Origin: an uncultured Rivularia sp.
Lineage (GTDB): Bacteria > Cyanobacteriota > Cyanobacteriia > Cyanobacteriales > Nostocaceae
NCBI GenBank assembly: GCA_963665115.1
Contig: OY762007.1
Span: forward strand, 1,696,001-1,760,000
Direction of reading: 5' to 3'
DNA: 64,000 nucleotides
Shown: one piece after another, positions 10,401 to 59,834 of the stretch
Position numbering within the stretch: the stretch's first letter is position 1
Layout of the letters: each line of letters opens with the position of its first letter
Notes under the pieces: model-generated
The model's input: the letters and a program-made list of their open reading frames with translations, nothing else
What the model was told of the DNA's origin: nothing
Database searches by the model: none
Translations under genes and position numbers: made by a program

Positions 10401-10449
10401 AAGTAATAAGTAAGAAGTAAAAAGTAAAAAGTAAGAAGTAAAAAGTAAT
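10401..10449. repeat. (AAGTAAD)7 heptamer tract, left arm of cassette 1
   Basis: Seen directly; complementary to 10892-11036. Confidence 0.9.
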
Positions 10450-10456
10450 AAATTGG

Positions 10457-10828
10457 TTATTTTTGTTTAAGTTTATTAATCGAAGATACTAATACCTTAA
10501 TAATTTCTTCATTTTCTTGTATCATATTGTTGAATTTGGATTTCAGCACTAATTCTGATTTAATCATTATTTTTATCCAATAAAGAGTCTCATTAGCTTC
10601 TTTCAAGGCTATAGAATACTTGTTGATAAAATCTGCGTTTGATTGAGCATACTTAGCTTCCGAACAGTTTGCTCCTATTGATGTTCCACTTCTTAAAAAT
10701 TGCTTAGATAATACCTTACCCGCATCGTCAAAAGGTCTTTTATTTAGTTCGCAATAAGCTTTGATAACTCTGATAGCAAAATTTTCTGTTCTTTCTTGAA
10801 TACTAATATTACCCTTATGATTAACCAT
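10457..10828 (-). CDS. Four-helix bundle protein (23S rRNA IVP / TIGR02436 family)
   Basis: QFLRSGTSIGANCSEA and DFINKYSIALKEANETLYW motifs. Confidence 0.92.
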   Translation of the reverse strand: MVNHKGNISIQERTENFAIRVIKAYCELNKRPFDDAGKVLSKQFLRSGTSIGANCSEAKYAQSNADFINKYSIALKEANETLYWIKIMIKSELVLKSKFNNMIQENEEIIKVLVSSINKLKQK

Positions 10829-10891
10829 GAATCAAAAATAATGCGACAACTTGTTATTAATCGAAAAACAATAAATAACGTATCAAGTATA

Positions 10892-11036
10892 ACTTCTTAC
10901 TTCTTACTTCTTACTTCTTACTCATTACTTCTTACTTCTTACTTCTTACTTCTTACTTCTTACTTCTTACTCATTACTTCTTACTTCTTACTTCTTACTT
11001 CTTACTCATTACTTCTTACTTCTTACTTCTTACTTC
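10892..11036. repeat. (CTTACTT) x ~20 heptamer tract, right arm of cassette 1
   Basis: Seen directly; abuts the cas1 stop codon. Confidence 0.95.
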
Positions 11037-12159
11037 AGTCTGCTCTTAGGTAAGATTCATAGATAATATCAGATAATAAACAGCGCTTATATCTCCTAAC
11101 TTGTAATTGAATTGCATGTCGATATGTTACTTGAGAAATTAAATCTGGATGAGAAATTTCTTCATTCATGCGATTTTCAAACTGTTTCAGAAAAACTCTT
11201 CTAGCAGTTTGACTTAAATAAACTCCTCCTGTGGTTGCGACGACATCAAAGTCTTTCGGTTTAAATTCACTATTATTAATTACTTTTAAAACCAAACTAT
11301 CAACAATAGGAGAACGAAATTCTTCCATTAAATCAAAAGCTAAATATGTTTTTTGCTTATCACCATAATGAAAATGACCGATATATGGTGAAAGTCCTTC
11401 GGTAATAATAAAGCTGAGTACATTATTAAATAAAAGTGTATAGCCAAAACTCAATAATGAATTTATCTCATCGGTGGGAGGCTGCCGAAATCTCTGAGAA
11501 AAACTAAATTTAGGATTAGTAATTAAATTCCCAAAGGCTGGAAAATATCTAGCAGCAGCAATTCCTTCATAACCGCGCAAAGTATCTAAGTTATCAACAT
11601 AATTCAAAGCATCAATATCTTGATTAATTCCATAGATAGCTTCTTCTACTTTTCCTATTTTGCGTCTGCGATTAAATCGCATCAATAATTGTTTGGAATT
11701 CAATAATTTACCTAAAACAACCGCTCTTGATACGCTAAATCGAAATAAATCATCATTACGTCTTTCTACTTGAACTAATTGATTATCCAGATGAATAGAT
11801 TTTTCGCTCCATAAGTGACCATGATATGTACCAGTTTGACTGAGAAATACCACGGGAATTTGTTCTTTTAAACAAGCTTGAATTACTGGAGTTGATAATT
11901 GAATATTACCGAATACTATAATTTGCTCTACTTCCCGAATCGGAACTTCAAGCTTCGGTTTTTCTGAGACATGAATAATAAACCGCTGATAATCTTTATA
12001 GATATTTGTTCCTTGTTCAATTAAGTATATAGCCGCCATTTCTTGATTCCAAATATTTTTTTGAAAAGGACTATCATCCTCTGCTGTTTGTGGAGGTTTT
12101 TCCGTGATTGTTTCGGCAAAATATGGTTTGTGTAGATAACGTATATTTTCATAACCCAA
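11035..12159 (-). CDS. cas1: CRISPR-associated endonuclease Cas1 (core starts at Met 12039; frame open up to 12249)
   Basis: LRGYEGIAAARYF, NSLLSFGYTLL and LAFDLMEEFRSPIVD motifs. Confidence 0.97.
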   Translation of the reverse strand: MGYENIRYLHKPYFAETITEKPPQTAEDDSPFQKNIWNQEMAAIYLIEQGTNIYKDYQRFIIHVSEKPKLEVPIREVEQIIVFGNIQLSTPVIQACLKEQIPVVFLSQTGTYHGHLWSEKSIHLDNQLVQVERRNDDLFRFSVSRAVVLGKLLNSKQLLMRFNRRRKIGKVEEAIYGINQDIDALNYVDNLDTLRGYEGIAAARYFPAFGNLITNPKFSFSQRFRQPPTDEINSLLSFGYTLLFNNVLSFIITEGLSPYIGHFHYGDKQKTYLAFDLMEEFRSPIVDSLVLKVINNSEFKPKDFDVVATTGGVYLSQTARRVFLKQFENRMNEEISHPDLISQVTYRHAIQLQVRRYKRCLLSDIIYESYLRAD

Positions 12160-12203
12160 ACCAGCAAAACCGTTAGTTATTGAATTAGAAGCTTCAGCTA
12201 ATT

Positions 12204-13166
12204 CTAAACTGCTTTCTTCTTTCGATATTGGTTGCGATAGACTTTTTTTTTACTAGTTTTTCTAGTTCTCGTTTTCTCGCGATTGTTTTCAATAGCTGAC
12301 CTTAATTTAGCTTTATTTGTATCTACAGGGAAAATTGCATCTTCTAAAAAACCATGACCTAAAAAACGAAAACCGCGTTCAAAGCTAGTAATTTGGGTTT
12401 TCTCGGTATTTATTTCTAACCCCATCGAATCCAATAAATCAATCACTTGCGATTTTGCGATCGCGATTCGTTCTTGACTAGTTGATAAAACCAAAAAATC
12501 ATCAGCATAACGCACGATTTCTAAATCACTAGCGCTAATAATTCCATCAAATTCATGGAGATAAATATTTGCCAAAATTGGAGAAATAACCGCACCTTGA
12601 GGAATACCTTTTTGAGGTAAGATTAGCCCTTCTCTAGTTTCCACACCAACCGAAATCCAAGCTTTAATTAAACATAAAATACCTGGGTGGTCAATATGTA
12701 ACCTTACCTGTTGTAACAAGCGATGATGGTCAATATTATCAAAAAACTTGACGATATCAGCATCCAAAACCCAGACATAACCCATGTCTCGCCAATCGGC
12801 TATTTTCTCTACCGCATTGATATAAGATAAATTAGGACGATAAGCAAAACTTACAGGTGAAAATTTCTCTTCCATTAACGGACTAATTACATTTAATAGA
12901 GCTTGCTGAACAATTCTGTCTCGAATAGTAGGAATTTTTAACTCTCTTTGGGAGCCATTTCTTTTGGGAATAATTACCTGCTTGCAAGGAGAAGGTTGAT
13001 AGCTACCATCAGCAACAGAATTCATTAACTGATAAATGTTAACCGTTTGATTGCTAGCAAAACTACTAATAGTTTCACCATCAACACCCGCACAACCGCG
13101 TTTATCAGCAACCTTTTCCCAAGCACGCTGAAAATTATTAATATCGATAAATAGACTGGAAATCAT
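12204..13166 (-). CDS. CRISPR-associated group II intron-like reverse transcriptase
   Basis: AGVDG, RELKIPTIRDRIVQ, DADIVKFFD, GIPQGAVISP, RYADD and FLG motifs; directly upstream of cas1. Confidence 0.96.
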   Translation of the reverse strand: MISSLFIDINNFQRAWEKVADKRGCAGVDGETISSFASNQTVNIYQLMNSVADGSYQPSPCKQVIIPKRNGSQRELKIPTIRDRIVQQALLNVISPLMEEKFSPVSFAYRPNLSYINAVEKIADWRDMGYVWVLDADIVKFFDNIDHHRLLQQVRLHIDHPGILCLIKAWISVGVETREGLILPQKGIPQGAVISPILANIYLHEFDGIISASDLEIVRYADDFLVLSTSQERIAIAKSQVIDLLDSMGLEINTEKTQITSFERGFRFLGHGFLEDAIFPVDTNKAKLRSAIENNREKTRTRKTSKKKVYRNQYRKKKAV

Positions 13167-13167
13167 G

Positions 13168-13220
13168 ATAAGTAAGAAGTAAGAAGTAAAAAGTAAGAAG
13201 TCAAAAGTAAGAAGTAATAA
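13168..13220. repeat. (AAGTAAG)n heptamer tract directly upstream of the RT start codon
   Basis: Seen directly. Confidence 0.9.
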
Positions 13221-13224
13221 ACTT

Positions 13225-13295
13225 GTAGGGTGCTGTACTTACGAGATAATTGTCGATTTTGACAATGAATTGTCGTCTTACCGTCACGCACCAAT
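13225..13295. repeat. GTAG-type REP-like element, copy 1
   Basis: GTAGGGTGCTGT...CGTCTTACCGTCACGCACCAAT, shared with 16140-16213. Confidence 0.7.
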
Positions 13296-13384
13296 CAGTA
13301 TTTAGAAGTCAAAAGTAAGAGGTAAGAAGTAATTAATAATTGATAATTGTTCACTGCTTACTAATAACTGATAACTGTTCACTG

Positions 13385-13975
13385 TTAACTGTTAACTGAA
13401 AACTGCTCGACAATTCGCTTTAATTCTTGAACCATAAAAGAATCAGCATCAGCTTTCAAAAATAATTGCAATAAAGTCTGGTAGTACCATAATGTTCCTT
13501 CTTTACCACCTTTAAATTTTCCCCAAGTAGATTCACCATTGTTAGATAAATCTCTCAAAATACTGCGAGCGTTATGCAATTTGTCAGCTAGCGATACCTT
13601 ACGAATAGAAGCAGAAGCACCACGCAAATTATCAATATATTGCTGTTTGCGCTGCAACCAAGGAGGTTTTGGTATAGTATTCGTATCGCTGCAACCATCA
13701 ACTATTTCCGCAACTTTTAGTCCAAACATATCAAAAATTACTTCACGAGTTGCTTGTCCTCCTTGGTCTTCTACTGCATCATGTAATAATGCAGCGATAG
13801 CTTCATCTTCATCACCACCATCTTCTAACACCAATGCAGTAACGCTTAAAAGATGACTAATATACGGAATATTGCTTCCCTTCCTTATTTGTTCGCGATG
13901 TAATCTTGAAGCATAAACTAAAGCTTGTTCAAAACGATTTGTTAAAAAATATTTTTGTGTTGTGTTTAAATTCAT
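13385..13975 (-). CDS. HD-domain protein, MESH1/SpoT-hydrolase-like
   Basis: HREQIRKG..PYISH, AALLHDAVED and VSLADKLHN motifs. Confidence 0.88.
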   Translation of the reverse strand: MNLNTTQKYFLTNRFEQALVYASRLHREQIRKGSNIPYISHLLSVTALVLEDGGDEDEAIAALLHDAVEDQGGQATREVIFDMFGLKVAEIVDGCSDTNTIPKPPWLQRKQQYIDNLRGASASIRKVSLADKLHNARSILRDLSNNGESTWGKFKGGKEGTLWYYQTLLQLFLKADADSFMVQELKRIVEQFSVNS

Positions 13976-14062
13976 ATTATTTAAAGGTCAAAGGTCAAAG
14001 GTTAAAGGTTAAAGGTAAATTAGAAAAGGTAACAAGGAGAAAAATAACTCCTAACTGTTCTC

Positions 14063-15592
14063 TTATATATAAAGCTTATAAGTAGCTTCCATTTCTCTTC
14101 TCATTCTGTCTCTTAAATCCAAAGGAAAAATCACTTCAACATTTGGACACCAAGCTCGTAAACGCATGACAATATTATTGTCGTCAACTCGATAATCAAT
14201 TTTGCAATAAATATCGTATTCGGAACGAGATTGTACTGTAGAAATCAATTGTTTCTGTTCTAAAGATGCTTTTGGTGTGTAAGATTTAATCAGTTTTTCT
14301 ACCTGTTTACGGGTAATTTTATGAAACATATCATCTCTTTCTGTTCCTTCGATATAATTACCGTAAAAATATTGGTCAAATCTTAGTATTAATAATGCTT
14401 GGGGTTTATGAATATCAAATCCCCAAACTGCTGACATTTTATCTTTAATTTCATCTGGATTTGGTGGATATTTACCGTAACATTTATCTAAAAAGTGTTT
14501 GGGTATATCAAGGTTATCTGCATTAGAATCTAATTTATTTAATTCATCTAAATTAATAATTTTATCAAGTCGATAGTCATACCAATCTATTTTACTCCAA
14601 GGATTCTTCCTGTTTGACTGAGGAATTTGACCATAAGCAAATAAATAAGGTGCGCGTTTATAGTAATAAATACAGACTGGATAAACAATACAATCAATTG
14701 TTTCTTGATATAGTTTAGCGCTACGATAGTTTAATTTAACTAATGGTACTTTGTCCCTTTTCCAAAGACTTTTTATTTTCTGCTGCAATAGCTCTATATG
14801 TTCGTTTAAACTTGAATGAACTATATATTCTGCATGAATAAAAAATCTTTGTATACCGTTAATAGGTTGTGAAAGAGAATTATTAAAAGCTGATAATTCA
14901 TGATTTGTGAATTGTTCTGAGGTAATTTCTTTGTTCTTCAGAGAACTTAAGAAAACTTCCGGGAATCGATTTACTTTTGTATATATAACTTTGCCACTAT
15001 ATTTTTTGATATTTAACCAACCTAAATTTACTAAAGATTGAAAATCGTGGTCTTTTAAATTACGAGCAGTAACTGCAAACAAACGTCCTTCTGGTAACGA
15101 TTTGGAAAATTTTTTATTAACAGTTAACGATTTTACTTCTGATTGCATGTGTTGAGATTTATTTTTAGCTATTCCACCTTGGAGTAGATTATTTAGTTCA
15201 TCACCTTCAAAAGAATAATATTTTTTTAGCGATTGACACCAGCGGTTTTCATCAATTCTTAAACTTGATTCAAACAACCATTGCTTTAGTTTAATAGCAC
15301 ATCGACATTCTTCTTTGATAAAATCTTGGTTTAACTCATTTAGGCTATGTAAGCTTGGTATACAATCACGTTTATGATATTTCTTAGCATCAATAAAAAA
15401 TAAATCGCGCCATTCTAAAAAACTAAACTCTTCTTTCAAGTCTAATTTTACTTCATCACTTTCATCCCCATAAATAGAACGTAAGATAACCCATAACCTT
15501 ACAGCTTTTGCTAAATTTTGCTTCAGAGAACCTGCTGTTAATATCTTGAGAACTTCAACACTAGGAGGATAGTTAAAAACTTCTCTCTTCAT
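14063..15592 (-). CDS. CRISPR-associated WYL-domain protein (TIGR03985-like)
   Basis: LKQNLAKAVRLWVIL, VYPVCIYYYKRAPYL, WYDYRLDKI and MRLRAWCPNVEV motifs. Confidence 0.8.
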   Translation of the reverse strand: MKREVFNYPPSVEVLKILTAGSLKQNLAKAVRLWVILRSIYGDESDEVKLDLKEEFSFLEWRDLFFIDAKKYHKRDCIPSLHSLNELNQDFIKEECRCAIKLKQWLFESSLRIDENRWCQSLKKYYSFEGDELNNLLQGGIAKNKSQHMQSEVKSLTVNKKFSKSLPEGRLFAVTARNLKDHDFQSLVNLGWLNIKKYSGKVIYTKVNRFPEVFLSSLKNKEITSEQFTNHELSAFNNSLSQPINGIQRFFIHAEYIVHSSLNEHIELLQQKIKSLWKRDKVPLVKLNYRSAKLYQETIDCIVYPVCIYYYKRAPYLFAYGQIPQSNRKNPWSKIDWYDYRLDKIINLDELNKLDSNADNLDIPKHFLDKCYGKYPPNPDEIKDKMSAVWGFDIHKPQALLILRFDQYFYGNYIEGTERDDMFHKITRKQVEKLIKSYTPKASLEQKQLISTVQSRSEYDIYCKIDYRVDDNNIVMRLRAWCPNVEVIFPLDLRDRMRREMEATYKLYI

Positions 15593-15742
15593 TCTGCTTT
15601 GATTTGTACTTTTGGTAGATGTCTCTACTTTAACAGCAGGTGGAATACGCTATTTCCATCTTGTCGCTTAAATAATAATAGCTTTACTTTTTATATTGCT
15701 CCCGCAAGTAATTAGTTTTTTATTCATTACGGAAATATTATT

Positions 15743-16099: not shown

Positions 16100-16139
16100 T
16101 ACCGCTACGCGGAAGTAAGAAGTAAAAAGTAATAAACTC

Positions 16140-21792: not shown

Positions 21793-23230
21793 GGAAAGAG
21801 ATTGCGGTAAACAAAGGGTGTTGTAACTGTCAGCAGTTATTACCATTAAAAATTATACACCGCAATATCTTGGTCTAACTTTATACTTTTTCAATGATTT
21901 ATTTAAGTGGATATAGAAATAAAACATACACCTTGAAATAATAGTACGCAATTACTAAATTGTTGACAATAATTACTTCCGAAATCGCAAAGATTTAGTA
22001 TAATATTTGCGCCATCTTCCAAAAAGCAATGTAAGCGCGCATATCAAGTTAACCCACAACAAATAAACGCTACTCCCAACTCCGAATCAATCATGGGAGT
22101 GGTTGAACGCTTGACCTATCACTCCGAAGAGTCGGGTTATACGGTAGCGCGGTTACAGCGTCCAAGGGTATCGGAATTAACTACCATTACGGGCAGCTTT
22201 GCAGGTATTCAGCCCGGACAAACGCTTCAACTTAATGGTTTCTGGCGCGAACATCCCTGCGGACGGTTTGCAATTTCAAGTTACCAACTACAAGGAAACT
22301 AAACCAGCAACAATCACGGGAATCGAAAAGTATTTAGGTAGCGGATTAATTAAAGGAGTTGGTCCGGTAACAGCAAAACGTATCGTTGCTCATTTCGGTA
22401 CAGAAACTCTCGATATTATTGACAATCAAATCGAGCGATTGCAAGAAGTGAATGGCATTGCGAAGAAACGTATTGCCATGATTCAGAAAGCTTGGAAGGA
22501 GCAACGAGCCATAAAAGAAGTGATGGTATTTCTTCAAAGTCATGGTGTCTCAACAACCTACGCGGTGAAGATTTACAAACATTACGGTGATTTGGCAATC
22601 AATAAAGTTAACGAAAATCCTTACCAGCTAGCAACCGATATTTATGGAATTGGGTTTCTCACTGCTGATAAAATTGCTCGTAATTTGGGGGTTCCTCCAG
22701 ATTCGGAATTTAGATATAAAGCTGGTATTATCCACGTTTTAAGCGAAGCAGCAGATTCAGGACATTGTTATTTACCGCAACCGGAGTTAATACAACAGCT
22801 TTGTGAAAAACTAAAAACTGACGAACATCAACCACAAGAGGATGGATTAACAAAAGTCATCAGCGATATGTCTCTCAGCGATGAATTAATTAGAGAACGT
22901 GATGCTGATAAAGTATTACTCTGCTACAAACCAACCTTCTTCCATACCGAACAAAACCTAGCGCAACTTATACTTTCTCGTTTGCATCAAACGATAAATA
23001 CAGATATACCTCGCGTTCATAATTGGTTGGAGCGTTTTAGCCAAAGCCGTAAAGTTTCATTATCAACGGAACAGCTACAAGCAGTTGAAACCGCAGCTTA
23101 CTCAAAAATCATGGTAATCACTGGTGGTCCCGGTGTCGGTAAAACGTTTTGTACCCGGACTATTGTTTCATTATGGAAAGCGATGGGTAAATCAATCGCT
23201 CTAGCTGCACCAACTGGACGAGCTGCACAG

Positions 23231-23719
23231 AATAATTCGTAATTCGTAATTCGTAATTCGTAATTAATTAAGATTACATTTAAAAACTGAATATGAGATA
23301 ATTATTAATAGTTAATTGACATTATAAAGATGATTCATAATATTAGTATAACTGACAGAACTAAAAAGTTTGCAGTTAGAATTATAAAAGCTTGTTGCTT
23401 CCTAGATGAAAAACCAGGAGTTAATCGAATAATATCAAGCCAATTACTTCGTTCTGGAACATCTATTGGTGCTAATGTTCGAGAAGCACAATCGGCACAG
23501 TCTGATAAAGATTTTCTTAGTAAACTAGAAATCGCATTGAAAGAAGCAAGGGAAACTCAGTACTGGTTGGAAATTATAATTGAATCTGAGTTAGTAGAGA
23601 AATCTAAGTTTGATTCTTTACTTCAAGAAGCTAATGAAATTGGCAAGATATTAGTTTCTTCTACTAAAAAACTTAAACAGAAATAATTACGAATTACGAA
23701 TTACGAATTACGAATTATT
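23231..23719. mobile_element. Four-helix-bundle cassette with perfect 36-bp inverted heptamer arms
   Basis: AATAATT(CGTAATT)4A at 23231-23266 and its exact reverse complement at 23684-23719. Confidence 0.8.
23330..23686 (+). CDS. Four-helix bundle protein (23S rRNA IVP family)
   Basis: QLLRSGTSIGANVREAQ and DFLSKLEIALKEARETQYW motifs. Confidence 0.93.
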   Translation: MIHNISITDRTKKFAVRIIKACCFLDEKPGVNRIISSQLLRSGTSIGANVREAQSAQSDKDFLSKLEIALKEARETQYWLEIIIESELVEKSKFDSLLQEANEIGKILVSSTKKLKQK

Positions 23720-24234
23720 TTGGTATGCTTGATTTATTTTTGGCATATTCATTATTTGAAGCGGTAGCGGATGATACGCAACTTCTCCTTGTTGGGGATA
23801 TAGATCAGCTGCCGTCAGTCGGTGCTGGTAACGTTTTGGCAGATTTAATTCATTCGGGTAAAGTTCCGGTAGTACGGCTCACCCAAGTCTTTCGTCAAGC
23901 TGCAAGTAGTAAAATTATTACCGCATCTCACCAAATAAATCGCGGACAATATCCTTTGATTGAAACAATTTCCGATACCCCCGAATCGGATTGTTTGTGG
24001 CATGGAGGAGGTTTTCAGCCGGAGCATGGGGTACAAGCAATTAGCGAGTTAATCACAGATTTAATTCCCAGACTTGGTTTTAATCCTGTGACTGATGTAC
24101 AAGTACTCGCACCAATGACGAGAGGTTTGGTTGGTACGCGCAATCTTAACAACGTACTGCAAAAACTCATTAATCCTCCTAGTCCCCAGAAGATAGAAGT
24201 AACAAGGGGTGGGATAATTTTTCGAGTTGGCGAT

Positions 24235-24262
24235 ACACCCGGAGGGTGTCGGCTTCGCCTAT
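24235..24262. mobile_element. 28-nt double-hairpin insertion into a HIP1 site (SDR5-like)
   Basis: GCGAT|ACACCCGGAGGGTGTCGGCTTCGCCTAT|CGC; removal restores GCGATCGC and the reading V-G-D-R-V-I-Q. Confidence 0.8.
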
Positions 24263-24757
24263 CGCGTTATTCAATTAACTAACGATTACCACCGGGAAGT
24301 TTTTAATGGGGATATGGGTTTTATTATTCATATTGACACTGAGGAACAGGAAGTTATCGTAAAATTTCAAGAACGTGATGTGATTTACGATTATGCCGAT
24401 TTAAACGAACTGGCCGTCTTCTTGGAGCGTTAGCATTCACAAATCCCAGGGTTCGGAATATCCGGTTGTATTTTTGCCACTATACTCGCAACATTTCGTA
24501 ATGTTGAGCAGGAATTTATTGTATACCGGCTTAACTCGTGCAAAGAAGTTAGCGATTATTATTGGTAGTAAGAAAGCGATAGGTATGTGCGTTCGTTCTA
24601 GAAAATCTCAGGAGCGATATACGCAGTTGAAGGAAAGGTTGATGAAAGTTTCTTGTATTCTAAATTAATTAACTAAAAGCTTTATTACAAAATTAAGATA
24701 ATAGGTTTTTAGACGTTAGATAATATCTACGACGGATATTTAAAGGAGATATTTAAC

Positions 24758-44703: not shown

Positions 44704-47028
44704 CTACAGGTTTATTCCCAACAACTGTAATATTCCCCTTATTGGTTCTTTTTGTGCCTCCAACATCTGCACCTGGGATAATAACCTTTTTGGAATATAA
44801 GTACTTTTAGAAATTGTTTTTTCACCACTTTTTAGCTGCCAGTCGTACCACGGTTGCTGGTACTGTTTACCATTTTTCTTAGTAATAGTCCTCCAGTGTA
44901 TTCTACCTGTGCCTTCGCCGTAACTTCTTCGAGTAGTACTACCGGTTCGCTCAACAGGTAGCACTGGTGATGAGTTTTTCTCCAACTGAGTACTACCGGT
45001 TCGCTCAACAGGTAGTACCGATGATGAGTGTTGCTCCGACTGAGTACTACCGGTTCGCTCAACAGGTAGTACCGATGGTGAGTATTCCTCTAACTGAGTA
45101 CTACCTGTTCCAACAGGTAGTACTGATGGTGAGTTTTCCTCTAACTGAGTACTACCGGTTCCAACAGGTAGTACTGGTGGTGAGTGTTCCTCCGACTGAG
45201 TACTACCGGTTCGCTCAACAGGTAGTACCAATGGTGAGCGTTCCTTTAACTGAGTACTACCGGTTCGCTCAACAGGTAGTACCAATGGTGAGCGTTCCTT
45301 TAACTGAGTACTACCGGTTCGCTCAACAGGTAGTACCAATGGTGAGCGTTCCTCCAACTGAGTACTACCGGTTCGCTCAACAGGTAGTACCGATGATGAG
45401 TTTTCCTCCGAGTGAGTACTACCGGTTCGCTCAACAGGTAGTACTGATGATGAGTTTTCCTCCGAGTGAGTACTACCGGTTCCAACAGGTAGTACTGGTG
45501 GTGAGTGTTCCTCTGAGTGAGTACTACCGGTTCCAACAGGTAGTACTGGTGGTGAGTGTTCCTCTGAGTGAGTACTACCGGTTCCAACAGGTAGTACTGT
45601 ATCCTGGGTAGAAACATTTTTGTTAACCCACATAGATGCTGGTGGATAAACCACACCATAAGGGTCAAACACTTCCTTAAACCTTTCCCAATTTTCACCC
45701 CAGTAAACCAGACAGTGCGATTGCCGAGCTGATAATTTTGGCTTGTAACTCGTATCAAGAAATTTAATCCGACCAGTCCAAAAACAAACGGGTTGAGATT
45801 TCAGTAGTGGAGATAGCCACTTAGTATCCGTAGCAGCAGGAACTAGTGCGATAGCTTCCGTTACCCTTCCCGATTCAAATTCAGCTTGCAACTTTTTTAT
45901 CCACACACTTGGCGCAGAGTAGGGAGGATTCATAAATATACGTCCGTTCCACTCTTGAATTAAACCGTCATCAAGAACTGTGTAGTGCTGCGCTGCTCTT
46001 ATGTGCTTACCTTCATCCGCGCAAGGGTCAAGAGTAATTTGTCCAAGCACCTGAGTAACAAGATCAGACATATGAGGTGGAGTGTACCATTCGTCTGATG
46101 ATAATGATTTATTGCTAAGAGATCCCTGTCCCCTACTCCCTGCATTAGATTTTAAATAATCTTCTGATGGAATAGGAGTAGTTGTTTCCTGAGTCTTTAT
46201 TAATTCTGCTATTTCAGGATTAGATGGGAGAGTATCAACAGAAATATTGAATAGTCCTTGCTTACCCTTAACAGCAAACGGTTCTGTTATTGGTTGAATA
46301 TTTTCCAACTTCCATGCATAACGTCCAACTTCCCAATCACCACTCTTTATTTCTGTTTCTGATTGCTGGGTAATAAGCGAGGGTGTTATAGGGATGCAAT
46401 CTACTAAATCGCAAACGGCGATCGCCTTCCCACATGGAAAATTAATTTCGTTCCAATCTGGTAATTCGACGCTACTGCAAATCTTCCAATACTGTTGATA
46501 TTGCTTTTTAGTAAGTTTGGCTGTGGAGCAAATTAATAGCTTACCTCTATAATTGGTTTTCCAGCTTCTAGTCTCATACTGTTTTATACCCAAAGCAATC
46601 AATGAGCAATAAGGCTGCCATAAACTGATTGCTTTCAAGGAATGATTAAATAATCTAAGGCCAGATTCTTGCTCCCGTTGAATCGAGCTTCGAGGAGTTG
46701 GGGTTAATTCTTCTGTATCTGCTGATTTGACCGTTATAGATTCAGAAAATTTTGAATCAGATTGCTCAAATAAACTTTTGTTTTGAGGAGCTACAGTTTC
46801 GTCTTCCTCTCCCAAAACTTTGTTTTGCTCGATTTTGGGAAGACTGTGACCGTCTGGTTCATCCCAAGCAGGGTCATAAAAAACTTTATCCCAGTCGCGT
46901 TGAGTGCCTTGTTTTTCAAAGTCCTGATATAATTCAATGTCAAAAAGAGTTGTCATTTTGATATCTTCCTTACGGATGAATCCTCTACCAACTAGGAGCA
47001 AACACACTTGATTCTTAAATAGAAGCAA
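44704..47028 (-). CDS. ASCH domain + N6-adenine DNA methyltransferase (phage Dam-like) + repeat linker + C-terminal domain
   Basis: ISLWQPY..GIKQYETRSW (ASCH); DEWYTP, LDPCA and FMNPPYS (MTase). Confidence 0.88.
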   Translation of the reverse strand: MLLFKNQVCLLLVGRGFIRKEDIKMTTLFDIELYQDFEKQGTQRDWDKVFYDPAWDEPDGHSLPKIEQNKVLGEEDETVAPQNKSLFEQSDSKFSESITVKSADTEELTPTPRSSIQREQESGLRLFNHSLKAISLWQPYCSLIALGIKQYETRSWKTNYRGKLLICSTAKLTKKQYQQYWKICSSVELPDWNEINFPCGKAIAVCDLVDCIPITPSLITQQSETEIKSGDWEVGRYAWKLENIQPITEPFAVKGKQGLFNISVDTLPSNPEIAELIKTQETTTPIPSEDYLKSNAGSRGQGSLSNKSLSSDEWYTPPHMSDLVTQVLGQITLDPCADEGKHIRAAQHYTVLDDGLIQEWNGRIFMNPPYSAPSVWIKKLQAEFESGRVTEAIALVPAATDTKWLSPLLKSQPVCFWTGRIKFLDTSYKPKLSARQSHCLVYWGENWERFKEVFDPYGVVYPPASMWVNKNVSTQDTVLPVGTGSTHSEEHSPPVLPVGTGSTHSEEHSPPVLPVGTGSTHSEENSSSVLPVERTGSTHSEENSSSVLPVERTGSTQLEERSPLVLPVERTGSTQLKERSPLVLPVERTGSTQLKERSPLVLPVERTGSTQSEEHSPPVLPVGTGSTQLEENSPSVLPVGTGSTQLEEYSPSVLPVERTGSTQSEQHSSSVLPVERTGSTQLEKNSSPVLPVERTGSTTRRSYGEGTGRIHWRTITKKNGKQYQQPWYDWQLKSGEKTISKSTYIPKRLLSQVQMLEAQKEPIRGILQLLGINL
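44934..45598. repeat. 13 tandem 51/54-bp coding repeats, each with a hairpin
   Basis: GTACTACC-GGTT(CGCT/C)CAACA-GGTAGTAC core encoding VLPV(G/ER)TGST. Confidence 0.95.
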
Positions 47029-49232: not shown

Positions 49233-49401
49233 GAAGGCAGGAGGTAAAGGGCAGAGGGCAGGAGGTAAGAAGATAAATAAATATCTTAAAACTTCCTACA
49301 GAAAATATGCACGAAGAATACTTGTATAATTAGCTGACCATTATTAATAGTTATTCCATCATTAATTCCCTCCTGCCTTCTGCCACCTGCCTACTGCCTT
49401 C
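49233..49401. repeat. Inverted pair of 5x heptamer arms (GGAGGCA/TGCCTCC)
   Basis: Arms at 49233-49267 and 49367-49401. Confidence 0.85.
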
Positions 49402-50754: not shown

Positions 50755-51122
50755 TGTGTTAACTCCTCATGCATTGGCATACGATTCAGAAGAATCTTTT
50801 CATCCAAATAAAAAATTGCTAATTCTCCATCGAACATCCAAGCTATAAACTGACTCTCCTGATTACTATTTCTCACACATTCATAGCATCCAAATTTATT
50901 AATCCTGCCAGCTAATAAGCCATACTGGTCAAATATTTCTATAACAAAAGGACAGTAACCTGTTTCAAACAATGGTTTTTTTATAGCTTCAATTAACGTT
51001 TTATGCCATGAAGGATAATTCATTAAAATAGATGAAATATCTGGACTAAAATTTGTAGAAGAGGCAGGAGGCAGAGGGCAGGAGGCAGAAGGTATAGTAC
51101 TTGTTTTATTAGATATATTCAT
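50751..51122 (-). CDS. Hypothetical protein
   Basis: ORF overlapping the next start codon (ATGA). Confidence 0.6.
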   Translation of the reverse strand: MNISNKTSTIPSASCPLPPASSTNFSPDISSILMNYPSWHKTLIEAIKKPLFETGYCPFVIEIFDQYGLLAGRINKFGCYECVRNSNQESQFIAWMFDGELAIFYLDEKILLNRMPMHEELTQ

Positions 51123-51307
51123 TTATTTAACCTTAAGTAAAAGACATAGTTGATAATTTTTAGTTCTTGTAAAGTGAGGTTATTTAAGTCCCGTTACTAC
51201 ATTGGATTTACAGTTTGGATTTAAGGTATTAACATTTGGTTTAAAACTTCTTTTCCTCCATCCCTCCTTCTTTCCCTCCTGCCCTCTGCCACCTGCCTCC
51301 TGCCTTC
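51060..51307. repeat. Inverted pair of 5x heptamer arms
   Basis: Arms at 51060-51094 and 51273-51307. Confidence 0.85.
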
Positions 51308-51309
51308 AT

Positions 51310-53008: not shown

Positions 53009-54856
53009 TTATTTATTATCGATACAATCCATTGCTTCTACCGCTTTTCTATATCCATCTACAACTGCAATCCCATGTTTCTTAACAGAATCACTCTCGT
53101 TAGCATTACTAATTTCTGAATCAATTGGAATACTTGCACCGCCAAAATGTATTTGACCGACACGTTCAATTAATCTTTCACCTGTAAATGTTTTTGATGT
53201 AGTTGGGTCAATTTGTTTTGATGCTGTATCCAATAATCGATTAGTATTGGATGCAATTAAATTCTGTTGTTCTGTAGGTGAAAAATATTGCACCATTTCT
53301 TCACCTGTAACTTCTTCACCTTTATCTAATCGAGTAAGAAATTTTGTCCCACCAGATTTACTCTGAATAATTTTTCTCACATTAGGACGGTATGACATAA
53401 ATTGCATAGCACCAAGCGAGCGACCGCAATTACCCTTACCATCACAAAGATAATTCCCTACCGAATCGTAATTATCTTGAATATCAGAAAGAGCAGTACT
53501 CAAAGCATCGATATTAGTACCTGATAAATGTCGTTTGCTGCAACTACCTTTATTGGGTGGCAATAAACTAGATGACTTACTACTTGAAGTTATGGGAGAA
53601 TTATTGAAAGTGAATCCACTACTTTTTAATCCAGTCGGAGTAGAAGTAGAATTTTCTCCACCCCCATTTATCAAACCTAAAAATATAGCGTCTTTTTCTT
53701 GATAACTCATAAACGGAATCGGACCGATAAAATAAGGTGTACATCCCAAATCAACAAAATTATTCCGCATACAAACTCTAAAGAATAAAGCTTGGGACAT
53801 CATTCCATCGACTTCCGATACATCCCAAACCGCTACTTTAAAAGCATCACCAAACAAATGTCTTCCTGTAGGTTCTTTTCCACCATTTATTGAACCAAGA
53901 ATTCCTCTACCACCTTTGACCAACTGATACTTACCGCTAACCCAAGCTTTACCCTTAACAGATTTAGAACCAGATAGCTCTACATGAGCGCAGTCTTGTT
54001 TACAGGGTACCGCGAAACCTTCTTTCTTACTTCCAGAAATTGTTCGTTGTCGCAACTGCTCATCAGTTCCAAAAGCAACATCAACTATTCCGACTTCTCC
54101 ACCTATAGCGTTTATAGGATTGGGGAATTGGGAGAAAGGAACCGAATCTAATCCTCGAACAGAATCAATGTAAGCTCCTTGCCAATTGGAAAATACTTCA
54201 ATTGGGGTAACAGATAGTTCAGGAATGGAATCAATATTGTAAGAAGTTAAATCAACTTCAGAAAAACTAAGCTTACCCAGGTGAGGGGATTTTTTTAGTA
54301 AATTACCAATCCTTTGGCTTCCATCAATTGAGCTAGATAAATTTTGAGAAAGTAAATACTCTACAGGCTTTACCTCACCAATAGGAGTATTCTTTAACCC
54401 AGGAATTGCAGAGACTAAACTACCTAAAGTTTGTAATTTCATAACACCAAATTCTTCTAAATTAATATCTTTTGAATCAGTATTTGTAATTTGAGAAATA
54501 TCAGCCAGCGAAAACTTTTGTAATTCAAAAGAGTCCTGAAAGTCACCTAACATCATAAATTCTGAAACGTTTTGTCCTTTTCCCCAACTGCGATTGGGGT
54601 TATAACCTAACTTTTCTTGAACACCTAGAGGTGCTTGGAATGAACCATCTGTATTAATAGAAGGCATTGTAGAAAAAGTAATTTGATTCCAGTCTGGTAT
54701 ACGAGTATTCTGCCAATTAACTGTTTGGATTCGATTTTGATTATTGGATATATCTTGAGCTTGTGATGAAACAATGATTGCACCAGAAATTATTATTGAT
54801 AAACCGATACCAGAGAATAAACTAATTTTTTTATCTATACGTTTCATAACTTTCAT
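53009..54856 (-). CDS. Secreted transfer-region protein, possibly with a C-terminal lysozyme-like domain
   Basis: Signal peptide; GRSLGAMQFM motif; operon context. Confidence 0.6.
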   Translation of the reverse strand: MKVMKRIDKKISLFSGIGLSIIISGAIIVSSQAQDISNNQNRIQTVNWQNTRIPDWNQITFSTMPSINTDGSFQAPLGVQEKLGYNPNRSWGKGQNVSEFMMLGDFQDSFELQKFSLADISQITNTDSKDINLEEFGVMKLQTLGSLVSAIPGLKNTPIGEVKPVEYLLSQNLSSSIDGSQRIGNLLKKSPHLGKLSFSEVDLTSYNIDSIPELSVTPIEVFSNWQGAYIDSVRGLDSVPFSQFPNPINAIGGEVGIVDVAFGTDEQLRQRTISGSKKEGFAVPCKQDCAHVELSGSKSVKGKAWVSGKYQLVKGGRGILGSINGGKEPTGRHLFGDAFKVAVWDVSEVDGMMSQALFFRVCMRNNFVDLGCTPYFIGPIPFMSYQEKDAIFLGLINGGGENSTSTPTGLKSSGFTFNNSPITSSSKSSSLLPPNKGSCSKRHLSGTNIDALSTALSDIQDNYDSVGNYLCDGKGNCGRSLGAMQFMSYRPNVRKIIQSKSGGTKFLTRLDKGEEVTGEEMVQYFSPTEQQNLIASNTNRLLDTASKQIDPTTSKTFTGERLIERVGQIHFGGASIPIDSEISNANESDSVKKHGIAVVDGYRKAVEAMDCIDNK

Positions 54857-55583
54857 TTCCTAATTGCATTAATCTGTTAACCAACTGTAACGAAATCCCA
54901 TTTTTGCGAGCAGCTATATTTATTTGTTCTCCTGCTCGAACTAAAACTAAAAAGTTTTTAACTCTCGGAATTAAAGGAGATTTTAAAGAAATTAAACGCT
55001 GCTGTCGTGCAACAATAAATCCCCGGCTTATTAACTGTAAATTATTGATATCTGTAGTGTTTCCGAATCTATTAGTATTAAACTCTTCTTTATCATTTGT
55101 AATCTCAATTGTGTGAAATTTGGGTGTTGCATCTCCAGGAGCTACCCTAAACATATAAACCCGTCGCTTGCTACCACCTTTGGTTACTACTGTTAATAAA
55201 CTGCTATTAGATGAAGGTAATTGTTTAAAATCTAAAGGTTTAATTCTTCGCAAATGCAATACAGTTGCACCATTATCTTCTTCACATTCTTTCCCCAATC
55301 CAGATAAACAACCGTCAACATCTAAAGAAGCAATACCAGGGTTATCTAACCATACTTTCTCTATTGTTTCACCAGTAGAAATAAATGAAATATTGACTCC
55401 ATATCCAGGAGATAATTTAATCAACGGTATTGCGCTTTTACTATTTCCAGTTGCAACTGTACTGCTTATTCGCTTGACACTAAAATTTATTTCACCAGCG
55501 ATTACTTTCATTGAAATATTAGTAGAGATAATTAAGGTGAATATAGAAATTACCGCAGCTTTATTTATGATATTTTTCATCAC
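54831..55583 (-). CDS. VirB9-like T4SS protein
   Basis: Signal peptide; LSPGYGVNISF and IEKVWLDNP; position after virB10. Confidence 0.55.
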   Translation of the reverse strand: MMKNIINKAAVISIFTLIISTNISMKVIAGEINFSVKRISSTVATGNSKSAIPLIKLSPGYGVNISFISTGETIEKVWLDNPGIASLDVDGCLSGLGKECEEDNGATVLHLRRIKPLDFKQLPSSNSSLLTVVTKGGSKRRVYMFRVAPGDATPKFHTIEITNDKEEFNTNRFGNTTDINNLQLISRGFIVARQQRLISLKSPLIPRVKNFLVLVRAGEQINIAARKNGISLQLVNRLMQLGNESYETYR

Positions 55584-57529
55584 TCACTAAATTGAAAAGA
55601 TTGATTTACAAATATCTGCACCTGCGTATTGACAGGAACATACCAAACCTTTTGCTGCTGTTTAATTTCCGAAATTTTTCGTTTATTGCGCTCTACTATT
55701 TGTTCGGTAAGTGGTTCAAATCCACCTTCTAAAACAGCACCTAAAATATTAGAATTACTTCGTCTAATAGAAGAAAAACTACTGTTACCACCAAAGCCAC
55801 TTGAAGTAGAAAATTGTTCGGATTTGGGTTGATTAAGTACTTTACCAACTTTTGCAAGAGAACCAACGACAAATGTTTCTGCATCCCGTGTGGCAATACC
55901 TTTACCTTTTGAACCTCGTTTTGATGCTATTAAAGGATTGCCCTTATTTCCACGAATACTGATTGCTTGTTTGGGAAGAATGTATTGCTTACCATTAATA
56001 ATAATTTGTTGCGCTTGAAGTTGTACTAACCCTGACTCTTGAATGTTTTTAATAGTCGTAACAATTTGAGTATTTTTGGGAATAGTAATAAAACCATTTT
56101 TATCTTTAAGTGGTTCGGTAGTTTGAATAATAAAGTTTTCTGGTTTATTAAAATTTTGTTGTTTATGGGTAGTATCTTCAGTTAAGCTTTTATCCCACAT
56201 CAAGGGTGTAGTTATTCTTCCAGCTACAGTAGAACCGATTCTGAAGGCAGGAGGCAGGGGGCAGGAGGCAGAAGGGTAGGAAGAAGATTTATTAATACAA
56301 GAAAATTCTGAACTATCTACTTGTCCAATTGATATATTTCTCCTTTCATTTAATATTCGAGCTTCTTCTGTATAAAGTGGTTCAGGATATACATTGCAAG
56401 ATATGGATGAGTAGCATATCCCTTTTCCTTTATTCCTCCTCCTGCCTTCTGCCATCTGCCTCCTGCCTTCTCCAACCATTAGAGGTGTAGCTGATGGTAT
56501 CGTCGTAGGTAAAACTGGCTTTTCATCTACTGTAGGCTTAACTTCCTTTTGACTTATCTGTTCGTTCTTATCTTCAGTAACAGATGTAATTTGTGCAGTA
56601 CCATAGCTTCCTAATTGATTAACAGCTAACCATTGCTGTGTCGGGTCAATTTCGGATGCTTTTTCAAGTATAGCTGGTGGAGGTGGTGGTGGTATTCTTC
56701 TTACGGGAGAAGTTATTAGTGGTGGGTTTGGTTTGATTGTAGCTTTGGGAGGAGCAGTAGGTAACGCTTTATTATTACTGTTGTACGAGCGAGCAGGATA
56801 ATTATTTTGCACTGTTCGACGAGGAATCGTTCTATAAACTGGTGTTCGACTTACAACTGGTGGTCTTTCAACTGAAGCTGTGCTTTTCCTATTCGTATTA
56901 ATGTTCGCTTCGTTCAATTTTTGTGGAGTTTGAGAATTCGTTTTCGGAATAGGTGTTTTAGTATTTTCTGATTCTGAGGAGACAGATTTAATTTTCTCTC
57001 TTTGAGTTGATAATGCTAATTCGGCTTTTAATTTCCCGTTTTCGTTTTCTATTGGTTTAGTATTTTCTTCAAAAAGTACTCTCGGTTTTTCAGCTTTTTT
57101 ATCTGAAATCAGGGGTGTAGTTCTTGGTTTACCAGAAATAATAGTATTAAGGAAAGTGGCTCCTGTACCAAAAACAATTAGTAATATAAAGCCTACTGCA
57201 CCAAACTTAGCAAAGGGATTAGTTGCAAAAGTTGGTTGAGTTTTACCATTATGTGGGTCATCAAATAATTCATGAGTATCAACTACATTATTATTTGAAT
57301 CATTAGCATCTGTATCGTTTACTTCTTGTTCGTTATTGCTTGTTGGCTCCTCTTCATCAATCGTTTCTATCTCAGTTTTAGAGACAGTATTATCTTTATT
57401 CTCAGAATCATCATAACCAAGCAATTTAGCTAAACTTTCTTCATCCCAATTAGTTGAAGATTCTTGACTTTCTTGTTGATTGTTTTCTTTGACAACATTT
57501 TCACTCGAATTTAGATTATCATTCATCAT
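55580..57529 (-). CDS. virB10: TrbI/VirB10-like T4SS protein
   Basis: Transmembrane segment, Pro-rich linker, C-terminal IRGNKGNPLIA...VQIFVNQSF. Confidence 0.75.
   Translation of the reverse strand: MMNDNLNSSENVVKENNQQESQESSTNWDEESLAKLLGYDDSENKDNTVSKTEIETIDEEEPTSNNEQEVNDTDANDSNNNVVDTHELFDDPHNGKTQPTFATNPFAKFGAVGFILLIVFGTGATFLNTIISGKPRTTPLISDKKAEKPRVLFEENTKPIENENGKLKAELALSTQREKIKSVSSESENTKTPIPKTNSQTPQKLNEANINTNRKSTASVERPPVVSRTPVYRTIPRRTVQNNYPARSYNSNNKALPTAPPKATIKPNPPLITSPVRRIPPPPPPAILEKASEIDPTQQWLAVNQLGSYGTAQITSVTEDKNEQISQKEVKPTVDEKPVLPTTIPSATPLMVGEGRRQMAEGRRRNKGKGICYSSISCNVYPEPLYTEEARILNERRNISIGQVDSSEFSCINKSSSYPSASCPLPPAFRIGSTVAGRITTPLMWDKSLTEDTTHKQQNFNKPENFIIQTTEPLKDKNGFITIPKNTQIVTTIKNIQESGLVQLQAQQIIINGKQYILPKQAISIRGNKGNPLIASKRGSKGKGIATRDAETFVVGSLAKVGKVLNQPKSEQFSTSSGFGGNSSFSSIRRSNSNILGAVLEGGFEPLTEQIVERNKRKISEIKQQQKVWYVPVNTQVQIFVNQSFQFSE
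56243..56470. repeat. Inverted pair of heptamer arms inside virB10, in frame
   Basis: Arms at 56243-56277 and 56436-56470; span 228 bp. Confidence 0.85.
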
Positions 57530-58353
57530 AGATTCTCCTGTGGTAAATCTCGTATTGCATAAATTTCTAAACCGCTAGAACGTACTTGATAAACTACTGC
57601 TGCAAGTCCATCATTTTTCGATGGAGATGAAGGAGCTTCTACCGCTTGGACAAATATTTATTTATTGAAAGGAATTACTTCTCCTAACTTATTACTTTGT
57701 TCAAACATGGTAAGGTTAGCAATCATTCTTACTTTCCATTTACCTTCAGCTATTTTTACTGGTTGTTGAAAATATTGTGGAACAAAAACTACTTGGGTTT
57801 TTCCTTTAAACACTCTTGAAGGTGTTATATCGGCTAATAATTCTAAAAACTCTTTCCGGAAATCTGACGATAAAGCGTAGGATGCTTGCCATGCTCCATG
57901 AGTTACTTTACCTCTACTATTACTGATTGAACTAATATCTACACCACTGTCGAGTTTTGGTTCCACTGCATCTTCGACTGTCGTAGCGGGTAAATTCCCC
58001 GACCAATTCATCATTAAGCTCATTGTGTCGGAAACAAAGCGTAATACTACTTGGGGAGTGCGTTCTAAGCTTCCTAATTGAGCAACTTTAATTGATTTCC
58101 CACTTTCTAATTGAACTAAACTTGGAGGTGCCTTTTTACTTAATTGAGAATAGGAACCGTACAACAAAAATAGGATTACAAAAGCTAGAAGATGTAATAA
58201 GAAAGTACCGACAGTGAATAATGCTAAAGTATCACTTCTAGAAAAACGAGTTGTAGTGCGATTTAAAAATTTTAAACGTCTGTCTTCTGTTTGAGAATTT
58301 AAGTTTTTATTAATTGCCATAAACTGACCTATTACTGCTCTATTTTTTGACAA
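57526..58353 (-). pseudogene. VirB8-like T4SS protein with an in-frame TAA at 57658-57660
   Basis: PSLVQLESGK motif; reading continues FNK*IFVQAVEAP...GLEIYAIRDL to 57526. Confidence 0.65.
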
Positions 58354-59488
58354 ACCCAGTCACAATAGAAGATAATCCCAAACTCGCAATACTTGAAAAA
58401 CTCCTTAAAACTGCCATACCTCCACCTACAGCTAATACAACAGATAAAATCGGAGCAAGAATACCAATTGCAAATGCAAAAATCATCGGGTCATTATTAT
58501 CGGCATTCATAACTAACGTCGCAACTAAACCAGAAATGATATTGAAACTAAGTTTTACCATTCCTACCGAGAAGAAGCCCGTTAACCAAGCGAAAATAGC
58601 TTTATTTCCTACAGGTAATAATGAGCCTCCGACAGCAAGAGGTCCTAGTAATGCACTCAGTAACATAGAAACTTCTATAATCCATTGGAAGGCAATACTA
58701 AAAGCTAATAACAATCCTCTTACTGTTAATTGAAAAATATTAGTGTTGAAAAAATCATTGATACCTTCAAGAAAATTGGAATCGTTATTATCAATTTGAG
58801 ATTCGATTTGTTGCGCTTGTTTCTGGGCATTTTCCAAGCATTCCGTTTGTTGAGTCGGGTCAGCGATGGCGTTACATTGAGTAATTAATGTTCTTATTGC
58901 TTCTGATTTACCATTTTTGAGCATGACTCTTTGATAGGCTTCTTGCAACTGAATGGAAGCAGATGTAGTCGAGAGTAATGTTTGATTTGTTTGATTGATG
59001 ATAGCTCTAAGTCCAAGAGTCGCTTCGGATAAAAGTTTGGCGTTATTAGTCAGCAAAACTATTACAACTAACGGCCAGATGATTTCTGAGAAAGCTTTGC
59101 TGTTGTCACCATCTACCATCTCTCTCGTCCACTGCACCATGAAAATCAACAAAGTTCCGACAGCAAAGAAAATTCCAAGATTGGCGATCGCACTATACAA
59201 TCCCCCACCAAGTACGTCATCCCACAGCTTGTCCACTGACTGAGCAACAGCTTCACTCGCGGCAATTCCATCTTCTGTAATGGTAGAAGCTGCTTGCCCA
59301 GGATTTGGATTGTTAGCGAAGGCAGGAGGCAGGAGGCAGAGGGCAGGAGGTAGAAATAGGAAGGAAGAAGGTAGTAAAATCAATGAATCCTTCAAACTTC
59401 TGCCTTCAAACTCATGAGTTATAGAGAACAATTTATTTGGAAACGCGGTATTCAGTTGGCAATTAACTGTTATCGGTTGACTGAACAT
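58340..59488 (-). CDS. VirB6-like polytopic membrane protein (start uncertain; TTG at 59383 plausible)
   Basis: Several transmembrane segments; LLGPLAVGGSLLP and FAWLTGF motifs. Confidence 0.7.
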   Translation of the reverse strand: MFSQPITVNCQLNTAFPNKLFSITHEFEGRSLKDSLILLPSSFLFLPPALCLLPPAFANNPNPGQAASTITEDGIAASEAVAQSVDKLWDDVLGGGLYSAIANLGIFFAVGTLLIFMVQWTREMVDGDNSKAFSEIIWPLVVIVLLTNNAKLLSEATLGLRAIINQTNQTLLSTTSASIQLQEAYQRVMLKNGKSEAIRTLITQCNAIADPTQQTECLENAQKQAQQIESQIDNNDSNFLEGINDFFNTNIFQLTVRGLLLAFSIAFQWIIEVSMLLSALLGPLAVGGSLLPVGNKAIFAWLTGFFSVGMVKLSFNIISGLVATLVMNADNNDPMIFAFAIGILAPILSVVLAVGGGMAVLRSFSSIASLGLSSIVTGFVKK

Positions 59489-59834
59489 TTTCCCAAATCT
59501 GAACTTTATGGTTTAACAAGTCAAATTAGACGTTCCGCTGTTTCGGTTCCTTCAAATATTGCAGAAGGATATGGTAGGAGAACAACGAAAGAATATATTC
59601 AATTTCTTCATATAGCGTTAGGCTCTCTTAGAGAACTAGATACCCAGTTAATTATTGCTAAAGAAGTTAATTTGGCTGAGACTGAATTTTTTACTTCTTT
59701 GTTGAAAGAAGTTGACCAACTTCAAGGAATCATGGTGTCTACAATCCAAAAGATAAAAACTTGATTTATTAGTTTCTTCTTCTTCCTCCTTCCTTCTCTT
59801 ACCTCCTGCCTTCTGCCTACTGCCTCCTGCCTTC
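59318..59834. mobile_element. Four-helix-bundle cassette with 35-bp inverted heptamer arms
   Basis: 59318-59352 and 59800-59834 are reverse complements with 2 mismatches. Confidence 0.78.
59414..59764 (+). CDS. Four-helix bundle protein (23S rRNA IVP family), antisense to the transfer operon
   Basis: FPKSELYGLTSQIRRSAVSVPSNIAEG and FLHIALGSLRELDTQL motifs. Confidence 0.94.
   Translation: MSYREQFIWKRGIQLAINCYRLTEHFPKSELYGLTSQIRRSAVSVPSNIAEGYGRRTTKEYIQFLHIALGSLRELDTQLIIAKEVNLAETEFFTSLLKEVDQLQGIMVSTIQKIKT

Follow-up and report, generated by a model that had tools for sequence, protein, structure and literature searches.

Four-helix-bundle genes between inverted heptamer arms: a widespread repeat-armed cassette and candidate selfish hairpin element

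The closest described relative of the element reported here is the intervening sequence (IVS) in the 23S ribosomal RNA (rRNA) of Coxiella burnetii, which carries an open reading frame (ORF) for an S23p protein. The relevant passages of the paper on this IVS describe a terminal stem, tandem heptamers of the unit GACAGAT in variable copy number, ORF decay, a length of 428–444 nt and excision by RNase III, and they cite the idea that the ORF formerly had a role in mobility (PMC4990558). The design of a gene set in a heptamer hairpin is thus already published for an rRNA copy. We analyzed a 64,000-nt stretch of DNA from an uncultured Rivularia sp. (assembly GCA_963665115.1, contig OY762007.1, positions 1,696,001–1,760,000 of the forward strand; hereafter the window), which contains three cassettes in which a gene of the same family, PF05635, encoding a four-helix bundle, is enclosed by inverted arms of tandem heptamers.

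Heptamer repeats are also known outside rRNA. In the sections of MacGregor (2015; PMC4679880) that treat them, period-7 tracts are found beside start codons, a translational regulator is proposed for TAACTGA repeats, no transfer mechanism is evident, and an earlier proposal of slippage at 7 nt is cited. Convergent heptamer pairs in Xanthomonas are described in part of PMC4692102, and the P6b region of a tRNA-Leu intron has heptamer-built stems whose repeat class has been swapped, according to the corresponding part of PMC4476775. The term "four helix" has no hits in PMC4679880 and PMC4692102. A related fold is found in Avd, a protein of diversity-generating retroelements, whose five protomers all take part in binding an RNA stem-loop, according to a section of a preprint (10.1101/2023.10.23.563531). 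Literature searches returned no description of the general element, and they left subscription papers largely uncovered, so a prior description may exist.

The initial annotation, made from the sequence of the window, had placed three genes between reverse-complementary arms with the units AAGTAAG/CTTACTT, CGTAATT/AATTACG and GGAGGCA/TGCCTCC, and we verified these units and their coordinates. The ORFs at 10457, 23330 and 59414 match PF05635/TIGR02436 above the curated cut-off, and each is enclosed by two tandem heptamer tracts that are reverse complements of each other. The ORF of cassette 1 (10457–10828, − strand, 123 aa) lies between an arm at 10401–10451 (AAGTAA(G/A), 6.9 copies), which is C-rich on the host (−) strand and ends about 50 nt upstream of the cas2 ATG, and an arm at 10892–11036 (CTTACTT, 20.7 copies), which is G-rich on the host strand and starts at the cas1 stop codon. 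Cassette 2 (ORF 23330–23686, + strand, 118 aa) interrupts recD2 (22199–24282, + strand); the outer tip of its left arm (23230–23269, CGTAATT, 4.7 copies) abuts nt 1199 of the recD2 coding sequence (CDS), and that of its right arm (23681–23722, AATTACG, 4.7 copies) abuts nt 1334. The fold of this cassette has z = −6.7, and 0 of 100 shuffles were equally stable. Cassette 3 (ORF 59414–59764, + strand, 116 aa) is antisense to a conjugation operon. On the host (−) strand, its left arm (59320–59370, GGAGGCA) takes the place of the spacer and approximately the first 10–12 codons of the next gene, while its right arm (59782–59833, TGCCTCC) comes directly after the host stop codon at 59834–59836 (−). 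Domain matches bear out the unrelatedness of the hosts: cas1-cas2, recD2 and a conjugation operon (VirB4/TrbI/VirD4). No rRNA or other Rfam match was found in the window at the gathering score, and the cassette hosts are protein genes. The host genome is a single contig of 8.69 Mb with 11 PF05635-family loci, of which 3 are broken.

Are such arms a property of this gene family? The comparison with control genes had been set as a test beforehand, and the controls were 1486 other ORFs of 90–160 codons, from simple ORF calls in the host genome. An inverted flank match scoring at least 30, our criterion for a stem, is present at 10 of the 11 family loci and at 40 of the 1486 controls; in a stricter set, with a periodicity cut of 0.6, the counts are 8/11 and 22/1486. 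From outside the lineage, we took the 186 best-scoring loci among the matches listed (80 GTDB, 80 metagenome and 26 viral), of which 22 were dropped for short flanks or no usable match. Stems are present in 124 of the 164 left (GTDB 56/76, metagenome 49/62, viral 19/26), compared with 0 of 124 windows shifted by about 750 nt and with 4–7% for arms paired across loci. Among cyanobacterial loci, 101 of 116 have stems. By their record titles, the outside loci include Bacteroidota, Alphaproteobacteria, Planctomycetota, Acidobacteriota, Chloroflexota, the Candidate Phyla Radiation (CPR) and Clostridia. The host sites are mainly housekeeping operons, such as dnaK-dnaJ, nuoC-nuoD, sdhA-sdhB, guaB-guaA and dprA-topA, and the distance from host stop codon to arm has a median of 1.5 nt (≤12 nt in 68 of 106 cases). 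The PF05635 gene is the sole ORF of the element, and no transposase or reverse transcriptase (RT) was found at E ≤ 1e-15 in the 78 of 100 neighboring ORFs that were scanned at 39 loci, which agrees with the absence of a transposase claimed at the outset. The repeat-armed cassette is real and widespread.

A coupling of stop to start codons as the purpose of the cassette was rejected: 62 of 99 sites are co-directional, yet all four gene arrangements occur, and the polarity of tracts seen genome-wide follows from the symmetry of the element. GxxExxY (PF13366) was likewise rejected as another cargo of period 8–9 arms, the one broken copy in the host genome being without arms.

The arms are inherited along with the gene. 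A quickly built tree of 116 cyanobacterial proteins, of which 101 have stems, based on few columns and with many forks open, gives each protein clade its own repeat family across host families, so that the repeat unit tracks the protein clade and not the host. Several clades are represented within the host genome, and one clade has mostly period 8–9 arms. Period 7 predominates among the outside loci, with 8 and 9 in the minority, and one locus of the host genome has period-9 arms. The initial annotation had proposed an element defined by period-7 architecture rather than sequence, with a different heptamer each time. The architecture is shared and the units do differ, but each heptamer is bound to a protein clade and inherited with it, and period 7 is dominant rather than universal. 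The four-helix ORF has a median dN/dS (ratio of nonsynonymous to synonymous substitution rates) of 0.11, with all 130 of 130 non-independent pairs below 0.5, and is evidently under purifying selection. The 109 cyanobacterial loci occupy 79 distinct sites.

Empty orthologous sites, likewise set as a test beforehand, are present for recD2, the conjugation junction and the obgE junction. Intact recD2 is found at 11 distinct loci in 10 genomes. In the window, cassette 2 substitutes for 134 bp of recD2 (nt 1200–1333) with no target duplication. Relatives of cassette 2 that are 95–96% identical occur in genomes G004 and G011 (G, C and L numbers denote genomes, contigs and loci), and the recD2 nucleotides replaced elsewhere are 1160–1333 in G019, about 333–1920 in G004 and about 71–1605 in G011. 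No junction of this series is more than about 4 nt from an arm tip, and the four-helix ORF is untouched throughout. The comparison of filled and empty recD2 and conjugation sites confirms that there is no obvious target duplication; host DNA has been replaced. A target duplication could have been lost by later erosion. In addition, some recD2 copies are frameshifted at their 3′ end by an insert of 26 bp that sits at a GCGATCGC-like site (L096 in G007, CDS nt 1846–1871) and is also seen near position 24250 of the window.

At the site of cassette 3, 16 of the 21 non-self loci with both anchors are empty, 2 hold another four-helix clade with other arms, and 3 hold gene-less hairpins. Every filled form begins at the stop codon of the host gene and has displaced approximately the first 10–12 codons of the next one. 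The GGAGGCA cassette had been described correctly, but three gene-less GGAGGCA hairpins in the same operon had been overlooked. The hairpin at 49233–49401 takes the place of the final codons of the upstream gene, stop included, and ends a few nt short of the next ATG; that at 51061–51305 follows a VirD4-like stop codon, with the start of the next gene in its loop; and that at 56243–56470 is in frame within a TrbI/VirB10-like gene, with host coding sequence as its loop. At the obgE junction, the 25 loci with both anchors comprise 3 full-length cassettes, 12 hairpins with other heptamers, 7 loci that retain the same arms around an internally deleted ORF, and 3 loci from other families with short spacers. 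In G031 the stop and start codons at this junction are 3 nt apart, and that genome has no PF05635-family match, while a distant cyanobacterium (L177) has yet another four-helix clade there. At cas1-cas2, the cassette is present in no relative among the matches listed, and one relative has a 13-nt gap between the anchors. At the level of sequence, these comparisons, with the close pairs described below, demonstrate that the ORF can decay with the arms kept, that the loop can invert, that junctions lie at the arm tips, that the arms abut stop or start codons of the host, and that host DNA is replaced. Neither of the two tests set beforehand refuted the initial proposal. The clade-linked units, the empty sites, the recD2 junctions and the neighbor scan together support the proposal of an element without a transposase, and we hold with far more confidence than any mechanism given below that gene and arms form a discrete unit which is gained and lost as a block.

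Other hairpins were seen in passing. The host genome has four more paralogous conjugation operons, at about 4.24, 5.89, 6.03 and 7.65 Mb, and the one at 5.89 Mb is studded with GGCAGTC hairpins. In G059, a gene-less GGAGGCA hairpin (L426:2270–2470, contig C57) lies about 7 kb from the cassette of that genome, and the seven motif matches listed for G059 are all on C57 within 8 kb. At L073 (G144:C64), a gene-less hairpin is nested in a four-helix ORF, part of which it replaces.

The AlphaFold model of the four-helix protein is all-helical, with a predicted local distance difference test score (pLDDT) of 96.9. Its closest folds are Xcc0516 (Z 18.8, root mean square deviation (rmsd) 0.9, 104 aligned) and BT_0352 (Z 17.2, rmsd 1.3, 102 aligned), and both of these solved family members have five chains per entry. 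Four residues (Q30, S37, N41 and E67) do not vary among 12 diverse sequences, and two more (R33 and E44) hardly do.

What is the cassette? We favor a selfish hairpin element of about 0.5 kb, which comes, inverts and goes at junctions between genes, with arm tips joined to host DNA by host enzymes, likely helped by the element's own pentamer, and we put the probability of this reading at roughly 0.5. Spread would occur by that joining, aided by the binding of the protein to its own repeats, and the flanks would erode as far as the arm tips, stopping only where a codon is needed. Such erosion would account for arms that hug stop and start codons and for the loss of up to 1.6 kb from recD2, a dispensable gene. 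Binding of the arm repeats by an Avd-like pentamer is predicted because Avd binds its RNA stem-loop with five protomers. The host may tolerate the element because the stem loops it out of the RNA, or because RNase III cuts the stem as in the Coxiella 23S copy. Contigs of four RNA runs from four studies showed no element-skipping joint at one Microcystis cassette (L178), although contigs drop rare forms. Two contigs end at the right arm of this cassette and depth falls there in one run; repeats break contigs, and we draw nothing from this.

The gene-less hairpins and solo tracts would, under the selfish-element reading, be debris and local offspring of the element. The host genome has about 3000 period-7 tracts, compared with tens to a few hundred for other periods. 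Tracts lie just 3′ of stop codons (1181) and just 5′ of start codons (590) with a fixed polarity, each family having one strand after stop codons and the other before start codons. Furthermore, 1214 of 2130 tracts of at least 28 bp have a unit identical to a cassette arm unit of other genomes, compared with 6.4% of random 7-mers. About 22% of tracts have an inverted partner within 450 nt, the G-rich arm leading in a ratio of 5 to 1. Of the 24 GGAGGCA-type motifs in the genome, 17 are no more than 10.6 kb from cassette 3 and form four hairpins, and among 24 genomes of other families, at least 7 motif matches occur in 3/3 with the cassette-3 clade and in 1/21 without it. In the window, AAGTAAG and TAACTGA tracts, unpaired or nested, also lie at 13170–13405 between an HD gene and an RT gene, the AAGTAAG tract ending just 5′ of the RT start codon. 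In 400 kb of G007 aligned with the host genome, G000 (about 90% identical), 22 junctions have a tract in one genome only, with primary events masked by turnover of other palindromic elements. The suggestion that the element explains the spread of cyanobacterial short tandemly repeated repetitive (STRR) sequences is thus borne out in its link, by the shared units, but the spread itself we infer rather than observe, since most tracts are unpaired and remnants are rare.

It is possible, if on balance doubtful, that the cassettes represent a new class of selfish DNA across phyla, in which the pentamer recognizes a clade-specific repeat and brings about the joining of arm tips, host DNA being replaced in the process, and in which the element itself encodes no transposase, integrase or RT. 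The 23S IVSs would then be copies that landed in rRNA, and the STRR and heptamer tracts of cyanobacteria, Beggiatoaceae and Xanthomonas would be non-autonomous offspring. Whatever its mechanism, the cassette connects two long-standing puzzles: where bacterial heptamer repeats come from, and what the very large PF05635/S23p family does. Were the protein to drive the process, DNA would be mobile here without a known mobility enzyme, in a mode that rewrites the ends of genes in operons; if it drives the junctions, this would be categorically new. The clade-to-repeat code offers a direct binding test with built-in swap controls, and the recD2 junction series and loop inversions offer assays for activity.

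Several observations weigh against the favored reading of a selfish element. Of 50 close pairs (DNA identity of at least about 85%), 44 have both flanks in common, another 3 make up the recD2 series, 2 have the loop inverted between the arms at the same locus (G138/G045 and G042/G003), and only 1, a cassette about 93% identical in G008 and G012, is at unrelated loci. Because so many pairs share their flanks and only one lies at unrelated loci, the block is mostly inherited and seldom moves. The recD2 series may go back to a single insertion, with later deletions anchored at its ends, or to several rounds of targeting, and the former would count against our reading; recD2 copies without any cassette also carry deletions. 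Phage integrases account for 2 of the 78 scanned neighbor ORFs, and part of the Coxiella paper argues that the S23p protein is not made in vivo (PMC4990558). As for the tracts, about 78% are unpaired. A BLAST search of the host genome for four-helix remnants gave 27 intervals, of which 11 are the known loci and only two others are convincing; the rest are short arm-like matches. The loop of the TrbI hairpin is host sequence, which simple decay does not explain. Within the family, the link of gene to repeat fails: the gene is present in G018 and G022 with 0 matches to the repeat, and G023 has 47 matches with no gene found. The local GGAGGCA clustering could reflect acquisition of the conjugative region from a host rich in this repeat.

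Many of these points would suit hairpins that arise independently of the protein, with the gene as a passenger: tracts would grow by polymerase slippage, as proposed earlier for 7 nt (cited in a section of PMC4679880), inverted partners would come from replication template switching, and the gene would pass from one like-armed hairpin to another by ordinary recombination and persist because it benefits the host in some unrelated way. Recombination between arms would give the loop inversions, and the host-derived TrbI loop, the mostly solo tracts, the recD2 deletions without a cassette, and the carriage of cassettes in other elements (G112, a MITE-like unit; G044, a tnpB-like gene) all fit. Nevertheless, we regard this explanation as unlikely, though it is the most serious of the alternatives, because it leaves unexplained the arms at nearly every gene of one family in many phyla, the tracking of protein clade by repeat unit, and the several deletions that halt within about 4 nt of an arm tip.

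The two carriers deserve a description. L138 and L139 (G112:C2) are near-identical cassettes within a unit like a miniature inverted-repeat transposable element (MITE), with its own terminal repeats and 8–9-bp target duplications. At L142 and L143 (G044), the cassette is apparently in place of the middle of a tnpB-like gene at two loci; we take the gene to be tnpB-like from its motifs.

Could an RT encoded elsewhere act in trans? In such a retro-element, the Avd-like pentamer would bind the hairpin RNA of the element and recruit the RT, and complementary DNA (cDNA) would replace target DNA. Avd is the next fold match after the family members and the closest outside it (Z 13.8, rmsd 1.8, 103 aligned), with a weak hidden Markov model (HMM) match (21.3 bits; cut-off 80), and it binds an RNA stem-loop with five protomers, as described in part of 10.1101/2023.10.23.563531. 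Furthermore, replacement without duplication resembles retrohoming, and the host genome has several RT genes. This mechanism is nonetheless improbable, given the lack of an RT among the 78 neighbors, an identity to Avd of 12%, and a Z score near that of unrelated helical bundles, which reach 12.3. The RT beside cas1 was rejected as a partner of cassette 1; it is part of the cas1 locus and is also found at loci that lack the cassette.

That RT has a feature of its own. A run of 9 A at 12243–12251, near the 3′ end of the RT gene (12204–13166; cas1 11035–12159; both −), is conserved. A −1 shift at the run puts the RT into the cas1 frame in 17 of 20 loci (L114–L133), and the TAA with which the run begins is the last upstream stop of the cas1 frame. 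Programmed frameshifting or slippage here likely yields an RT-Cas1 fusion. No paper with the term RT-Cas1 was listed in one literature search. Downstream of the RT-cas1-cas2 module is a long CRISPR array (3453–9858, repeat about 37 bp). Elsewhere in the window, a Dam/ASCH-domain ORF (44935–45597) contains a 54-bp coding repeat in 12.6 copies.

Finally, a domesticated regulator, in which a TRAP-like RNA-binding ring on heptamer tracts at start and stop codons genome-wide would tune translation or mRNA processing with autoregulatory arms at its own gene, is improbable, as the strong purifying selection, the fixed polarity of the 1181 and 590 tracts at stop and start codons, and the regulator proposed for TAACTGA repeats in part of PMC4679880 are outweighed by patchy occupancy, disruption of recD2, breakage of 3 of the 11 copies in the host genome, an antisense position at some sites and unrelated clades swapped in at the same junction, all of which fit a selfish element better.

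How do the cassettes compare with known systems? Their protein matches the fold of Avd from diversity-generating retroelements (PDB 4DWL, 8UB7), and the two solved family members are pentamers, but it scores below the Avd HMM cut-off, and the gene has neither an RT nor template and variable repeats next to it. Terminal inverted repeats are shared with insertion sequences (IS) and MITEs, from which the cassettes differ in having no transposase, no target duplication and no set of identical copies in the genome. A further likeness is to the adjacent deletions of IS, in that the junctions stop at the tip of the element. In the RAYT-REPIN system, a low-copy, mostly inherited gene lies between repeats of a kind that also occurs as gene-less hairpins in intergenic regions throughout the genome; the RAYT protein is a transposase of the HUH/Y1 type, and the repetitive extragenic palindromes (REPs) are short palindromes. 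The cassettes likewise have gene-less hairpins with the same repeat as the flanks of the gene, but their protein is a four-helix PF05635 bundle in which no nuclease domain was found, and their arms are tandem arrays. The STRR and heptamer repeats resemble the arms in their period of 7 and in adjoining start and stop codons. The Coxiella 23S IVS shares the PF05635/S23p ORF in the loop, the long complementary stem, the tandem heptamers and a similar size. RNase III cutting is a feature of that rRNA copy only, and the cyanobacterial cassettes, by contrast, lie between or within protein genes, replace host DNA, and have clade-specific units. The cassette is thus best filed as a variant of the ORF-bearing IVS that lives outside rRNA.

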